Shown: positions 31,401-43,400, counted from the first letter of the stretch. The stretch: DNA of 64,000 bases from Schmidtea polychroa (GCA_044892525.1 CM097885.1:17982001-18046000); one strand, 5' to 3'. Numbers and translations: made by a program. Notes: generated by a model not told the origin, from the sequence alone.

Positions 31401-34400
31401 ACCTGGTTATGTAAGTAATTCGTTGGAAATTATTATATCATCTTACATCCCCCTCCATTTAAAACTTTTGATCCATTCTACATTTCGAATTATTTCTTTG
31501 CCTTGCTTATTCTTTAGAACATAGCTTCTGTCATGTCGTTTTCCAGTTATTTCATAAGGCCCTTCATAACGTTCATCCATCTTTCTAGTATTTTATTTTT
31601 TAACCAATACTTGGTCTCCAACTTCAAAATTCCTATAATTTTGTGTAATTAAATTCTTTTCTATGTTTTGTTTATGTTTAATTCCCTCCACGATCTCCCT
31701 TTTCCGATTATTAGCATCATTATTTTGTATATCCAAATTCTCTTTTTCCATCCATTGTCTACAAATATTCCGCCCAAATATTATTTCAGAGGGCGAAAAT
31801 CCGGTTGTCTGCTGTATCGTCGCATTTAACATAAATTCCACATCAGTAGATGGTTGTGGGCTCCCTAGTTCATGGGCCCTCTGGATCACATATACCCCCC
31901 CGGCCGGAAAATTTTCAAAGTCTAAAAGTACATTTTTCAAGGTCATATTTTAAACAAAGACATATGACTCATCAAGGTCATTTCAAGGTCGCATGGTTCA
32001 TCCAAGGTCATTCCCAAGGTCATATGACTCATCGTGATGACTAATCAAGGTCATATTATTATTTTTAAAAAATATTATTATTTTATATTATTATTCAAAA
32101 TATTATAAGTGATCCAGAGGGCCCATGGTTTTCGTTTGCCCAAAAGTTATCGTTCTAATCATTTTATTTTATTGATCGATAGCTCATTTTAAAGCCCAGT
32201 GCAAGATCTATCTGTTGATATATAAATATTATCATCAACATTAATATTGGTAAAGTTATTAACAATTGATGACCACCTTATTTTCATAGTTTAAATATTA
32301 TTATTATTCAAAATATTATTAGTGGTCCAGAGGGCCCATGGTTTTCGTTTGCCCAAAAGTTATCGTTTCCATTATCCGAATTTATTAATCGATAGCTTAT
32401 TTTGAAGCTTAGTGCAGGACCTTTCGAATGAGCTATAGTAGTCATCACCATCTTTAATATTGACAAAGTTATTAACATTTTCCCGAGACCATATTCAAGG
32501 GCATATAATTATTATTATTCAAAATATTATTATTTTCAAGGTCATTTTTTTCTCAAGGTCATATTTTAAAATTTAAATTTACAGAGTTCCCGCCAACAAA
32601 AATTGTTCAACGATAGCTCATTTTAAAGCTCAATTCACGAACTTTCGATTGAGCCATATATTATTAACATTATTATTATTAACATTATTATTATTATTAT
32701 TATTATTATTATTATTATTATTATTAGTTTTAGCACACACTCATTATACCAATATGAATATAGTTTTCATGGTGTATCAAATCAAAACTCCTATTTTTAT
32801 AGTCTATCAACCAATCAGAACACATGTTATTTCAGTAGTAATATAAATAAAGCAGTATATTAAAAATTATTATAAAAATGTCTCAATTTAGTGAAAATGT
32901 TCTAAACGGAATTGTCACCGCGAATATAGTCGACAGCCTCAATTTCCTGATCAATCGAACTGAACAAATCATTGAAGGTGAACATATCGATTATCAGCAG
33001 ATGATGGAGATGGAATCCCTGGAAACCAAGAAGTATTACTTCAATAGAATATTTCAGTGTCTTTTCGATGAAGGCATGAAATGGACAAGGATAATTGTAG
33101 GATTCACCTACATGAAGATAATCATTGCAAAAGGTCAACATGACTCAGAACATTATTATCAGTGGTCTTTAGAAGTAAGATTTCTTTTATAATCTACATA
33201 TATATTTTAATAATATTCATTTCTAGATAATCAAGTCCCATGGATAGAAGCCAATGGCGGATGGGGTGTATTAAATAAACTGGCCTCAATTTTAAAGAAA
33301 CTGATGAAATCAAAAGCAAAAATGAAAAACTATATAAAACTTACAACTGGAGTTGTTATAATGTATATTTTCTGTAGATATATGAATAAAAATTAATGTT
33401 ATTGTTTTTAATAGTATATTTAAATGAAAATAATTCAATTTTAAAATTTATTAACACATTCGCAATCATCATCTCCACATTTCATTATATTTTCAACGAC
33501 ATGATCAATACAATCATTCGTAATATTGTCTTTAGGTTCCTCTATAGATTCATAGATTTCGTCATCAATTTCTTGAGTTTCTTCCTGTGCGTCAAATCCT
33601 GAATATTGACTCTCAACTACCCAGCCGATATTTAATGCATTTGTAACAGATAATATATCCTCAATTTTTACCCCAGATATTTCAGCTAATTTTGCCAACA
33701 AAAAGTTGATTACAAATTCTAAATAATAAATAATTTGGAAATTAATTAATCATGTTAACCTTTTTCTGTAGTCATTATTAACACTTTAAAACTATATTAT
33801 AAGTTTGTTTATAGATTTTCTTTGTTAAATTTGCATGTCATTTGCATTAATGTTGCAATTAATAAAGAGAAAAAACAAATATGACTAATACATTTATTAA
33901 ATATAACATTAAAATAGTTGTGAAAGTCTAGCAGACATAATTTTCCAAATTGGAGAATACACATCATTATTATCAACTTTATATCCTTGGATTGCAATTG
34001 TTATATACCAATTTTCGTTTTCTTTGAAGCTGATTTCATCAAAGATATCATAAAATCTTGCATATCGGTTGTTGAAAAATGCATGTTGATTACAAGATAG
34101 ATTCGTATTCAACCGTTTGAAAACCTCATCAATAGATTTAACATCTATCGTTGAAAGCGTGCCGGATAAAAATTGAAATTGGGTAGGAATTAGCTTGACC
34201 GGTGACACCAATTTCATATTGATTTCTTCTTTTAAAAAATACATTTTATAGTTGTGGAACATTTGAACAGGTTGTACAAGTTCTGGAACAACTTTCGGCT
34301 TTTCAGTGCTTGAAATTTTCTTTGTCATCGTGAATTATGATTAAAATGAAATGGTACAGGGTTTTTATACCTATGACTATTGTTTATCAACCAATCAGAT

Positions 34401-40400: not shown

Positions 40401-43400
40401 CGACTGGATATAAAGTTTGCAAAAGCTATTACTGAACCGGTACATGTTATAATATATGGAGTATTTGAAAATGAAGTTCAAATTACTGCAAATAGAACTG
40501 TGTTGGTATAAATGTATATTGAAACATAAAAAGTTGTCATGGAGTAAGTTGTTTTTTTATACTCTGGATTTATTAAAGTAGTTCTGTTCAGGTTAATCGA
40601 ATCGGAAAACAGATATTGGGAAATGAATTTGTTGGAGTTTTTCCTCTTGATTAAATTCCATATTTTAGCAATAATCAAGCAATAATCGTCAATACTCAAT
40701 CGTCTCATCTTGGTGGAGAACATTGGATAGCTATAACGTTAAACCTGGTAATATATTCATGTTCGATCCTATGGGTTTTTATTACCCGGCTTTGTTGATA
40801 TCAAAACAACAAACAATGGGGAAACCTATTGTGTATAATAAAACTATGTTTCAAAATCCATTGACCCAAACATATGGTCAACATTGTTTAGCTTGGTTAT
40901 TGTACAAAAAATTTGATGTTTAAAGAAAAATGGATGTTTAATAAAATTTGATGTTTAATAAATGTATCATTGTCTTATGACAAGATTTTAAATGTCCAGA
41001 AACCTGGCAGTATCGTGGATATAATTTACCTAATAATGATAAATCCTTAAATATTATTTGAATATTTATCTAAATATTTATTACAAATTGTTAGTAGGTG
41101 GAGTGAAAATTTTTTTTTCTTAATATCTTGTTTGGATAGCTATAAAAACTTGGTAACACATGCAATTAGTAATGTGGCAAACAATTAGACAATTTAAAGC
41201 ATATCTTGAGGTTCCACAATTGACCTAAAATATAGGCATATTTCGATAAAAAAGCAATAATCTTAAAAAAAAAACATTTTTTTATAAGTAACATATTTAT
41301 GTTATGGTTTAACTTTTTAACAGTCTGTACATAACATTACAAGTAATAAGAACCATATCTGTGAAGGGAAACCACATGCAAACTGTCTAACATGTTTTTT
41401 AACTACAAATGATGTTGGGCTTTGGTGTCCAGTTTTGGCATTTTCAATCTCGATTCCAAGCGTGCTCTAATGAATCCGTCGCGTTTTTCTGGACCACGCA
41501 CCATTTCGGATGCTTCTGTCACTAGCTTGATATGTCTCTCTACTGCCTGGGTGTGACAAGGATAGCGGGCGAAATCCAGTCTTGGCGTTTCTTCTTCCCG
41601 GATCATGGTTAACAAAGTATCTTCGTCAATGTCCACTACGATTGGAGGCTCTGTGATCGGAGTTTTCTGCCAATCGATCATGTCTATGTAGCTAGTAGCT
41701 TCAAAGTTGATTACTGGCACGTAGAAAGATCTAACTGAAGTCGTACGTTTCTGCTTTCTGGATTTCAGTATGCGTCGCAGAGCTAACTCGCGTATATCTG
41801 ATCTTTCATCGGTAAGCATCGCAAGCAACAGATTTTCTGGATGACTAAAGAATGCGTTGCGTTGAATTACCGGGTCAACAACTTTCTTCAGCTCGTCTGT
41901 GAGGTAGCGTGATTTCAGTATCGTACTGTGGACATGTCGAGCGCCGTCTTTACACGAAGGGGTATTCTTTATTTCAAACCATGCAGGTGCATAAACTGTT
42001 ACGATGAAGGTAGCAAGCGTCTTTAGTTCATCCGACGGGCTTCTTGTGGCAACATACAGACGTAGTATGCGATTAGCCGTGGTTAACCATCTCGAATGGT
42101 TGATAAGACCAGGATTGCGAAGTGAATGGTCGACAGGACAAATACCAACACTTACAGCAGTACACAAATCGAACAGGTATTTCTGATCTGTACTTAAATC
42201 GTCGGAATTTGCACTTGACGGTAGAACACAGTTTATCGGCATGTAGTCAACGATGGGAAGCTTCTCACAATTCAACAATGACTTTCCAATGGGACCAGAA
42301 AATCCTTTTGGACCATTGGTAGGTCCATCGAGATACCGAAACAAATGTCTTAACGGTAATTCGTTTGCATGCAACTGACATACGAACCACTGTAGCGGTC
42401 TGTGTAACGTCACTTCAAGTAATCGAATGATGCCTCCTCGAATGCCCGTATTAGTGGCTGTCCCATCACAACCTATTGCTTTTATGCCACTCGTGTCAAC
42501 ATTTCTTTTATTCAAATATGCAATCAACTCAGCCGTGATAACTTTGCTTGACCCTGCAGTTGGTGTAATGTGACCGAAATATGTAGCTCCTGGTTCGGCT
42601 ATAATCGATATATGTTCTTCAGTTATTATTTTCCGATGAAATTTACCATCGCATTCTTTAATTTGGGTCATTGTATTGTCTTTTCTGCCGTCAAAATATA
42701 ACCCAGTGATTGTGTTACTGACTTCGGCACATAATGCGCCACGCTTATTACAACGTTCTCGACGCACTTTACTTCTGTCAATCACTTTAGAAACATCATG
42801 TTCGTGGATTATTCCAACATCTTGAAGAACAGCACTGGCGATTCCTGCTGCCGCCTTGTCGGATACGCCATGTCGATCACACGCTAAAGCCAACGACGGT
42901 AGCTTAACTCTCATCTGCTTGTCATTCAATTTTCGCTGTTGTTTAATTTGGCTTATACAATCGTCATCAGAGTCATCATCGCCGGTATCCATTTCCTCTT
43001 CCATTCCAGAAATCTCGTCACAGACATCCGACTGTTTATCACCGATGTCATCAATGGCAGATTTGGTACACATCTGCCTCTGTGTCGACTCTTTACGGAT
43101 ATACCGCTTTTGTAATATACTGGATTCAAACTCATCAACTCCAGCTATGATCATACAGCGTGAACCCCGCTGATCTTCTAGAAAGTCACGTTCAATTGTG
43201 GGTATCTTTCTTGACTTCTCACAGTGACACTGAGACATACAAGAGCACTTGCAGGAGCAAATGTCAAAGAGTTTAATCGATTCATCTTTAAACTGCGATA
43301 TTTTCTCTCTGTATGGTTCTGAGTCCTTCCTAGATTTATACGGCTTCAGCAATTTCATGAACGTCTTGTGGTACACGTTCAACATTTCATGAACACGGCG

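Follow-up and report, generated by a model that had tools for sequence, protein, structure and literature searches.

A dead, truncated Polinton/Maverick insertion in Schmidtea polychroa and its high-copy family with Bcl-2-like and TBP-like genes

Results

The window analysed here, a stretch of 64,000 nucleotides from Schmidtea polychroa (GCA_044892525.1 CM097885.1:17982001-18046000), holds one dead, 3′-truncated Polinton/Maverick insertion that spans positions 31845 to ~40923 and lies within an intron of a host gene of the striatin family. We put a probability of about 90% on the reading that it is a single decayed member of a high-copy family that encodes a protein-primed family B DNA polymerase (pPolB) and carries a left arm with Bcl-2-like and TBP-like genes. 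The genes of the window copy run in the order Bcl-2-like, a 68-aa ORF, ORFb, ORFc, TBP-like, packaging ATPase, basic protein (‘pX’) and integrase, followed 3′ of the integrase by a putative penton, a ‘core’ protein, the major capsid protein (MCP) and a protease. A first-pass annotation had proposed an endogenous Polinton-like virus whose left arm combines Bcl-2, TBP and three orphan genes, followed by the block ATPase-pX-INT-mCP-core-MCP-PRO; all of these were recovered in that order, the names pX and penton being putative. The stretch encoding the ATPase has 40 scored matches in the genome at 96–100% identity, and 2949 first-look candidates, so that the element is not a chance finding.

The left terminal inverted repeat (TIR) is ~0.89 kb long (31845-32732, + strand), begins 5′-AGTAGATGG and finishes in an (ATT)n microsatellite. 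The AG-initiated terminus proposed at 31845 was borne out, as the same 9-mer opens 6/6 element ends examined (window, L009, L017, L016, L010 and L027) and the blastn homology of three other copies begins exactly at this position. A search for right-end TIRs and 6-bp target-site duplications, as had been suggested, found both. Inverted copies of 31845 to ~32700 are present at right ends, including inverted matches to 31936-32732 at those of L026 and L033. The window copy gives no target duplication as its right end is missing; the duplication data come from two complete but internally deleted copies, being exact at 6/6 positions in L016/L017 and at 5/6 in L009/L010. The family has the long TIRs, 5′-AG termini and 6-bp target-site duplication that are the hallmark of Polintons.

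On the minus strand of the left arm, an intact gene (35100-35537) encodes a minimal TBP-like protein of 145 aa, assigned by Pfam (PF00352, E 1e-14, 54.5 bits, cut-off 22.9), by a fold model and by profile. The structure model (pLDDT 94.5) has the TBP saddle and matches TBP chains over its whole length in Foldseek (E 1.5e-8, TMq 0.66–0.76), and the profile matches 35 PDB TBP sequences with E down to 3e-19. In the model, repeat 2 is complete, and repeat 1 keeps its strands without H1 and with a 3-residue helix in the place of H2. The Phe residues of ELFPAL and VFASGK are invariant in 27 sequences, and these motifs correspond in the alignment to EPEQFPGL and IFRSGKV in archaeal TBP. Within the family, ω of this gene ranges from 0.23 to 0.82 and is uninformative because copies differ mostly by post-insertion decay. 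The gene is independently broken in four of four type-B copies examined, from which we conclude that many insertions are dead.

A Polinton hallmark gene is present at 39 of 81 related loci, and at 28 of 39 when only loci of at least 3 kb are counted. In metagenome contigs, TBP-like genes at 23–55% identity are syntenic with Polinton genes, and among the ATPase-bearing contigs (n = 26) the TBP-like gene lies 89–1526 nt upstream of the ATPase on the same strand in 20/26. The recurrence of a homologue near the packaging ATPase in these 26 contigs argues that the TBP-like gene is an old gene of this clade. Its usual place in the clade would be immediately 5′ of that ATPase, in many cases accompanied by the orphan ORFb.

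With its ten-strand DNA saddle and a complete repeat 2 retained, the minimal protein is proposed to bind TATA-like sequences in the element’s own promoters and to recruit the host RNA polymerase II machinery. A less probable but serious alternative is that the protein is not a promoter factor and serves instead as a decoy against host TBP or as a DNA-bending architectural protein; the decoy role would amount to host shut-off or escape from repression, and the architectural role to replication or integration at the AT-rich TIRs. The modelled loss of the repeat-1 helices from the convex surface would remove part of the usual partner surface, the gene adjoins the packaging ATPase in relatives rather than a polymerase, and the TIRs carry arrays of the 9-mer CAAGGTCAT (7 copies in the left TIR versus 0.45 expected across the whole window), all of which would suit such a role. 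However, this 9-mer is not TATA-like, and the saddle strands and repeat-2 Phe positions are conserved, as TATA binding would predict.

Natural copies indicate a full-length form of ~15–17 kb with TIRs of ~0.9 kb starting AGTAGATGG, where the size is arithmetic from three partial stretches of one copy and does not include the right terminus. In this form, the left arm, with its two-exon Bcl-2-like gene, and the genes from ATPase to protease are followed by an acidic ORF and then by a pPolB of 1300–1450 aa. Two copies (L026 and L033) run on past the protease into pPolB, and longer genome copies continue through pPolB to the right inverted repeat. The family polymerase matches PF03175 (E 2.6e-31), as do 6/7 aligned relatives, and a genome search for pPolB gave 18784 first-look candidates and 54 matches that were scored, many of the frames being open over 1300–1469 aa. 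A Pfam search for an OTU-type N-terminus with residues 1-509 of the L033 pPolB returned no family, which is not proof of absence.

In the window itself, the first-pass annotation was right that pPolB is absent, as tblastn of the family’s 1301-aa pPolB against all 64 kb gave a best E of 6.9. The option it raised of a Polinton-like virus family without a polymerase, dependent on a helper for replication, is very improbable. Such a family would explain the window’s lack of pPolB, and the many internally deleted copies (~8.4 kb in L009/L010, ~6.3 kb in L016/L017) must use the proteins of others. However, copies at 97–100% protein identity have pPolB directly after the protease gene, which refutes helper dependence for the family, and the homology of the window copy simply stops at 40923, just past the protease gene and beside an inserted transposon. 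The element had been annotated as ending at 41090; the DNA at 41092/41097-43951 (− strand) is a separate young DNA transposon of 2.85 kb that adjoins the truncation point and is not part of the Polinton, since 26/26 scored genome places match that stretch alone, at 99–100% identity. For the 660-aa ORF of this transposon, the best Pfam match is at chance level (E 0.093). The window therefore lacks a polymerase only because this one insertion was truncated next to an unrelated DNA transposon, and the other possibility raised by the first-pass annotation, that pPolB had been in a lost right arm, was the correct one.

The Bcl-2-like gene lies at 32878-33396 (+ strand) and is predicted to be spliced. 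Exon 1 (32878-33174, 99 codons, open in copies) carries a BH1-like KWTRI..GF motif, and exon 2 (33227-33396) carries the BH2-like WIEANGGW and a C-terminal hydrophobic anchor; between them, sequence and the alignment of copies indicate a 52-nt GT..AG intron (33175-33226), which is 44 nt in the type-B lineage. No contig was found that bridges this intron, the listed runs including none on record as RNA. Exon 2 is broken in the window, where alignment with L009, L012, L017, L020 and L023 reveals a frameshifting deletion of 10 bases, and is intact, with 59 codons, in L012, L024 and L027. For the window lineage, the assignment comes with direct scores that are all sub-threshold: with a PF00452 cut-off of 31.4, exon 1 reaches 22.1 bits (E 2.3e-4) and its type-B counterpart 14.8 bits, exon 2 on its own has no PF00452 match, and the best E of the PDB profile search is 0.04, with 11/17 weak matches named as Bcl-2 family. 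In addition, KWTRI..GF aligns with NWGRIV..F of BFL-1, and Bcl-2 clusters make up 18/30 ESM atlas matches (top score 0.93). The genome also contains a very divergent Polinton arm (L122), in which ORFb and a TBP-like gene accompany an intronless Bcl-2-like gene; the Bcl-2-like protein of this arm passes the PF00452 cut-off (32.5 bits, profile positions 2-100), and window exon 1 is homologous to it (E 4.6e-11). PF00452 also matches open frames of 1000–3000 aa at many loci in this genome.

The left accessory arm is contiguous in 7/7 other copies, from 32296/32715 to ~37600, and is part of the element; the first-pass annotation had named copies without the 32878-35537 arm, or single-copy host genes, as findings that would count against it, and the arm is present in all seven, with Bcl-2-like and TBP-like both being multi-copy genes of the element. 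That these two are genes of the host, or were captured locally on one occasion in or beside the insertion, is very improbable. Both belong to cellular gene families and the GT..AG intron of the Bcl-2-like gene is of host type, but they lie inside the inverted repeats in 7/7 copies, have 2377 (Bcl-2-like exon 1) and 4124 (TBP-like) first-look candidates with 149/150 and 150/150 scored loci open, TBP-like keeps the metagenomic synteny described above, and the Bcl-2-like gene has no significant similarity to host Bcl-2 loci L115 and L118, the two compared among six fetched (best E 0.014). Both genes are thus best read as genes of the element, and the Bcl-2-like gene was found in the Polintons of this genome only. 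Between lineages, Bcl-2-like exon 1 (ω ~0.13) and ORFb (ω 0.13–0.15) are under purifying selection.

ORFb (33909-34328, − strand, 139 aa) is a conserved gene by this measure and by its homologues, which lie beside the TBP-like gene in 20/81 related loci. It has 103 representative clusters at E ≤ 1e-3, and no Pfam family was found in 24/25 tested. The 68-aa hydrophobic ORF (33396-33602, + strand) is a putative gene without a family match, present in other copies at 58–94% identity, some with stops. ORFc (34624-35025, − strand, ~135 aa) contains a Cys cluster, has 48% tblastn identity with an ORF of L020 and has a weak homologue in L122. It has one in-frame stop, whose position is shared by the four type-A copies and which may mark an intron.

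All genes of the morphogenesis block are on the plus strand. The A32/FtsK-type packaging ATPase (35637-36263, 208 aa) is intact and matches Pox_A32 (26.2 bits, cut-off 22.8). It is followed by the basic protein (36279-36812, 177 aa), which ends in a hydrophobic C-terminus, is 36–56% identical in relatives and has no Pfam family, and by an rve integrase with a C-terminal chromodomain (36874-37953) that contains an in-frame (ATT)n poly-Ile run. The window integrase itself scores under the cut-offs (rve 26.2 bits against 32.6, Chromo 21.3 against 25.1); in three relatives at 55–57% identity, rve reaches 48–54 bits, and in the relative L083 Chromo reaches 32.6 bits. The putative minor capsid protein (penton) was located by tblastn as three frame pieces (~37884-38969); an intact ORF of ~350 aa occupies this position in L013, L022 and L032 and is conserved in relatives, and a PDB profile search gave no meaningful match. 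The 122-aa ‘core’ ORF (38959-39327) is intact, with 33–54% identity in relatives and no family match.

The double jelly-roll MCP (39324-40511), likewise in three frame pieces by tblastn, was modelled in its intact 407-aa form (pLDDT 79.6), which matches capsid proteins of iridovirus, PBCV-1, mavirus, Sputnik and faustovirus with E down to 2.9e-16. Of 127 MCP loci scored across the genome, 126 are free of stops, and in most the frame is open over 427 aa. The adenain-like cysteine protease (40577-40923) is in two pieces in the window, broken by a stop and a frameshift; its form in L019 matches Peptidase_C5 (E 6.7e-7, 29.6 bits, cut-off 21.3). In all, Bcl-2-like exon 2, penton, MCP and protease are broken in the window copy, a decay that the first-pass annotation had not recorded. 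The family is very abundant, with thousands of copies in the genome, and its capsid, TBP-like and Bcl-2-like genes are open and near-identical at more than 100 loci each, which points to very recent activity.

Discussion

By analogy with Polintons and adenoviruses, an intact element of this family would copy itself with its own polymerase, integrate with its own integrase and probably be able to form capsids. The tail-anchored Bcl-2-like protein may hold off mitochondrial apoptosis during element replication, in the manner of adenovirus E1B-19K. More tentatively, and at somewhat below even odds, we suggest that the minimal TBP of 145–160 aa has long been a syntenic gene throughout a Polinton/adintovirus-like clade and gives small viruses and transposons without an RNA polymerase their own basal promoter-recognition factor. 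In this host lineage, the arm would also have gained the Bcl-2-like gene and kept it across lineages whose DNA no longer aligns. A cut-down TBP in a virus-sized element without an RNA polymerase offers a compact natural system in which to ask what surfaces of TBP transcription initiation requires. The call of a polymerase-less virus, for its part, came from a truncated copy, and sister copies settle such cases.

The family is an ordinary, adintovirus-like Polinton/Maverick that is new in one modest respect. In the strict sense, Polinton-like viruses reportedly have neither pPolB nor an rve integrase; the family shares their capsid, ATPase and protease module, and has both of these genes, so that this assignment was rejected. 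Polintons/Mavericks and adintoviruses share with the family pPolB, an rve integrase with chromodomain, an A32-type ATPase, a double jelly-roll capsid, an adenain-like protease, long TIRs and the 6-bp target duplication; the window copy differs in its truncation and decay. The adintovirus definition includes an integrase with a C-terminal chromodomain, as is seen in the L083 relative, and a hexon that BLASTp links reciprocally to reference adintoviruses (Buck et al., 10.1101/2024.03.25.586562). The first-pass suggestion that the gene set is undescribed does not hold in full. Accessory Bcl2 homologues have been reported in adintoviruses (Starrett et al. 2021, PMC8502044) and a “TBP” label is already present in that literature; the arm with minimal Polinton TBP and Bcl-2-like gene was otherwise not found described, the searchable literature text holding nothing beyond a figure label.

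A virus-encoded TBP fold is also shared with Nucleocytoviricota, and BFVD matches to the TBP-like protein include phycodna-, mimi-, marseille-, asfar-, asco- and iridovirus proteins (E 1e-7 to 1e-3). The giant-virus proteins are 186–608 aa long and are encoded by large cytoplasmic viruses that have an RNA polymerase of their own, whereas the element’s are 145–160 aa, are without the repeat-1 helices and reside in a 15–17 kb element without an RNA polymerase. The resemblance to adenovirus E1B-19K would lie in a small tail-anchored Bcl-2-fold protein that a virus with a double jelly-roll capsid encodes in its accessory (‘early’) region, and an atlas cluster with both Adeno_E1B_19K and Bcl-2 members is among the Bcl-2-like matches (score 0.85); unlike E1B-19K, the element’s gene is predicted to be spliced in one lineage and is intronless in another. 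Planarian Burro giant LTR retrotransposons carry a BCL2-like motif (PMC6431247) and are thus likewise mobile elements with a Bcl-2-like domain, which in Burro is embedded in a gypsy-like polyprotein, whereas in the Polinton it is a separate small gene. Bcl-2-like domains therefore occur in two unrelated classes of mobile element in the same kind of genome, suggesting that control of apoptosis matters for the success of mobile elements in this host.

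Element boundaries, copies and host locus

The Polinton opens at position 31845 with the 9-mer AGTAGATGG, which begins all six of the element ends examined, and the open reading frames of the first-pass annotation follow it. A search of the 781-Mb assembly with its ATPase stretch (701 bases) gave 2949 first-look candidates and 40 scored matches, the latter at 96-100% identity. When seven other copies and their flanks were compared with the window by blastn, an unbroken stretch from 32296 or 32715 to ~37600, spanning the Bcl-2-like and TBP-like genes, was common to all seven, and the accessory left arm that had been assigned to the element on first reading is therefore a genuine part of it. 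Three copies start precisely at 31845, and right ends bear inverted versions of 31845 to ~32700. Target duplications of 6 bp flank two complete copies with internal deletions; the duplication is exact in one of them and agrees at 5/6 positions in the other. In an internally deleted copy of ~6.3 kb (L016:9199-10000 with L017:1-5538, loci of the same genome) the right 'repeat' seems to reach into left-arm sequence, an extension beyond the usual inverted repeat that gives a palindrome-like derivative.

The terminal inverted repeats also contain multiple copies of a second 9-mer, CAAGGTCAT. In the window, seven of its eight matches fall within the array at 31938-32562, all on the + strand, with 0.45 expected. 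Other copies in this genome (L009/L010, L016/L017, L024/L026, L033) hold 3-15 of them, with forward orientation in the left repeat and reverse orientation in the right one, and the motif is absent from the five metagenome relatives checked. The motif resembles a nuclear-receptor half-site in extended form.

With a GC content of 0.27-0.34 the region is AT-rich, and it belongs to a host striatin-family gene on the minus strand (22345-58371), recognized from its Striatin domain (PF08232, 58084-58368, minus strand, E 1.5e-14) and WD40 exons (48001-48354, 44157-44417 and 22345-22842, minus strand). The Polinton copy lies inside this gene and is therefore intronic. Besides the Polinton, a DNA transposon and fragments of reverse transcriptase (46791-47324, 15873-16295) lie in the introns of this gene. 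The stretch 62488-63999 encodes a retrotransposon Gag (Retrotrans_gag, E 4.3e-10) whose frame is still open where the window ends; it has three zinc knuckles of the CCHC type (zf-CCHC, E 6.5e-11).

Family homology in the window ends at 40923, which is the end of the protease gene. Just beyond lies a young 2.85-kb DNA transposon, distinct from the Polinton (41092/41097-43951), with imperfect terminal repeats, copies 99-100% identical and a 660-aa ORF that has no significant Pfam family. In a search of the genome with a 16-kb DNA query, all 26 scored places were this transposon only (99-100%), swamping the Polinton matches. The same transposon sits within the 'core' gene (a positional label) of the Polinton copy at C1:148.07M, where its flanks overlap by nine bases (38983-38991); the flanks in the window, when compared, have no mutual repeat. 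Such flanks are compatible with, but do not prove, a truncation by deletion or by recombination at this site.

Virus-like module and DNA polymerase

Pfam was surveyed for 14 window ORFs. Two exceed their cut-offs: the TBP-like gene (35100-35537, minus strand; E 1e-14, 54.5 bits, cut-off 22.9) and a Pox_A32-type ATPase (35637-36263; E 6.8e-6, 26.2 bits, cut-off 22.8). The ORF at 36874-37953 matches rve (E 1e-5, 26.2 bits, cut-off 32.6) and Chromo (E 2.5e-4, 21.3 bits, cut-off 25.1), and the ORF at 32878-33192 matches Bcl-2 (E 2.3e-4, 22.1 bits, cut-off 31.4); the remaining ORFs had no meaningful Pfam match. Integrases of relatives exceed the rve cut-off, and one exceeds that of the chromodomain. 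The integrase gene (36874-37953) and its sister copies contain an in-frame (ATT)n microsatellite encoding a poly-Ile run of variable length, a site at which relatives at 55-57% identity lack ~20 residues.

The capsid was modeled from the intact 407-aa gene of a sister copy with nine metagenome relatives (pLDDT 79.6), and the model matches the double jelly-roll capsids of iridovirus, PBCV-1, mavirus, Sputnik and faustovirus, with E down to 2.9e-16. The protease matches Peptidase_C5 (29.6 bits). A PDB profile search with the putative penton gave no meaningful match, and penton, 'core' (122 aa) and 'pX' (a basic 177-aa protein) are putative labels assigned by position. In the window copy, frame breaks or a stop split the genes for penton, capsid and protease alike. 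Across the genome, 126 of the 127 scored capsid loci lack a stop, and most have the same score and an open frame of 427 aa, which indicates very recent amplification.

The first-pass annotation had reported no visible DNA polymerase, and had offered either a lost right arm or a polymerase-less family as the reason. The second reading is wrong. Beyond the protease, sister locus L026 has two further ORFs, of 135 and 833 aa, that contain motifs of an exonuclease and the DTDS motif of a polymerase, and in L033 the polymerase region is a single 1301-aa frame. The 833-aa core of this protein-primed family B polymerase (pPolB) matches DNA_pol_B_2 (PF03175) at E 2.6e-31, as do six of seven aligned relatives. 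PF03175 was missed when the whole 1301-aa protein was searched against Pfam, phmmer found no match in PDB, and a pPolB profile matched phi29 polymerase alone there (E 0.045). Used as a query against the genome, pPolB drew 18784 candidates; of the 54 matches that were scored, four have 97-100% identity and fifty have 81-85%, and open frames are up to 1469 aa long. The window has no trace of it (best tblastn E 6.9). With window homology stopping at 40923 and pPolB present in longer copies, the lost right arm was the right alternative, and 'no visible polymerase' holds for the window copy only. All seven aligned members (L026:1562-4060 and relatives) have within pPolB, immediately ahead of the polymerase domain, a weak zinc motif like that of endonuclease VII (PF02945, best E 4.8e-5). 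By analogy with their families, pPolB would self-replicate the element, the rve integrase would integrate it and the element would form capsids.

The Bcl-2-like gene

Exon 1 of the Bcl-2-like gene ends at 33174, at a GT, and is followed by 52 nt and a polypyrimidine-AG, so that 33175-33226 is a predicted intron. Contigs aligned over this interval contain no junction across it, and contigs are not informative on transcription. The exon 2 product of sister copies contains WIEANGGW and has a hydrophobic tail; in the window a 10-base deletion puts the exon out of frame. Pfam scores for the gene are below threshold, 11 of 17 weak matches to a PDB profile search were named Bcl-2 family proteins, and 18 of 30 atlas matches were Bcl-2 clusters. 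These lines of evidence are weak singly and concordant. A word search with exon 1 yielded three candidates, of which one protein is a near-identical copy.

The link that we regard as decisive comes from another Polinton left arm in the same genome, L122 (G000:C1:15404400-15407600), whose DNA is too divergent to align with the window. Among its genes is one without an intron for a protein of 152 aa that scores 32.5 bits with PF00452, above the Pfam cut-off and over profile positions 2-100, and matches window exon 1 at E 4.6e-11; sequence homology would thus place the window gene in the Bcl-2 family. L122 also carries homologues of ORFb (33% identity) and of the TBP-like protein (51%) and a weak ORFc match. 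Its gene orientations are unlike those of the window family.

Of the 150 loci scored for exon 1, drawn from 2377 candidates, 149 keep it open. The gene was found in none of the 81 related loci described below, and it has no significant similarity to two host Bcl-2 loci (of six fetched). The gene was probably acquired long ago within the Polintons of this genome, and its product would delay apoptosis while the element replicates.

The TBP-like gene

The 145-aa TBP-like protein is intact in the window. In a model built with 26 homologues (pLDDT 94.5), repeat 2 is predicted to have the complete strand-helix pattern, and repeat 1 to keep its strands while lacking H1 and having a three-residue helix at the place of H2. 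In Foldseek the whole model aligned with TBP of eukaryotes and archaea (E 1.5e-8, TMq 0.66-0.76), with 44 matches at E<=0.001, and the family profile matched 35 PDB TBP sequences with E down to 3e-19. In the profile alignment ELFPAL and VFASGK fall opposite their TBP counterparts, and their Phe is invariant in 27 sequences. All 150 scored genomic matches, from 4124 candidates, are full length and open.

Protein databases hold 105 relatives, nearly all of 100-190 aa. Synteny was assessed in 81 loci, comprising 80 kept of 89 metagenome relatives and one distant viral locus (27% identity), the single match of a TBP profile scan of viral contigs. Polinton hallmark genes related to those of the window element were found in 39 of the 81 loci, and in 28 of the 39 loci of at least 3 kb. 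Among the 81, the ATPase occurs in 26 loci, the integrase in 19, the protease in 11, the capsid in 10 and pPolB in 7. In 20 of the 26 ATPase-bearing loci the TBP-like gene is upstream of the ATPase on the same strand, at a distance of 89-1526 nt. This deep conservation of a minimal TBP beside the ATPase in a Polinton clade is the one point worth pursuing. The protein would recognize the element's own promoters and recruit host Pol II factors; alternatively, it may have a decoy or architectural role.

Orphan genes, selection and recombination of the left arm

The family defined by ORFb (33909-34328, minus strand) comprises 103 representative clusters at E<=1e-3. No Pfam domain was found in 24 of the 25 relatives tested, and a profile search of PDB gave no match. 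A GyrI-like/Cass2 assignment scored 0.81 in the atlas, which is chance level, and a relationship of ORFb to the TBP-like protein was rejected at an hhalign probability of 0.08%. ORFc (34624-35025, minus strand) and a small hydrophobic 68-aa ORF were seen, as far as searched, only in elements of this genome.

Window 32878-36263 was compared with L012, L017, L020, L024 and L027, which distinguishes the window lineage (type A) from a second (type B). Between the two, nucleotide identity is 70% for Bcl-2 exon 1 (ω ~0.13, with dS saturated), 86-88% for ORFb (ω 0.13-0.15), 93-97% for the TBP-like gene (ω uninformative) and 97-98% for the ATPase (ω not informative at such divergence). The accessory genes therefore evolve as proteins. 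In L017 a type-B Bcl-2 is joined with a type-A ORFb; from this mix and the uneven identities, the arm has been shuffled by recombination between co-resident Polinton lineages.

Relation to known elements

Literature searches on Polinton with Bcl-2 or TBP, and on Maverick with TBP, found only adintovirus papers tying such genes to Polinton-type viruses. Starrett et al. 2021 (PMC8502044 and preprint) record adintovirus homologues of Bcl2 and IAP, and figure legends there (PMC8502044) list 'TBP'; neither TBP nor Bcl is mentioned in the accessible part of the Buck et al. preprint. Other papers describe planarian Polintons as known piRNA-targeted repeats (PMC8532177) and note Mavericks in planarian genomes (10.64898/2025.12.11.693146). 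The window element is real but ordinary, belonging to a known kind as a truncated and decayed copy.

At dozens of places in this genome, open frames 1000-3000 aa long likewise score with the Bcl-2 model of Pfam (~29 bits), and these fit the BCL2-like motif that giant Burro LTR retrotransposons are reported to carry in their polyproteins (PMC6431247). In its features the present genome would resemble these published accounts. The window family differs from the metagenome loci in that its TBP-like block is opposite in strand to the ATPase. The nearest named viral TBP folds (BFVD) are those of giant viruses or of crustacean bacilliform virus, and they are longer than the TBP-like protein of the element.
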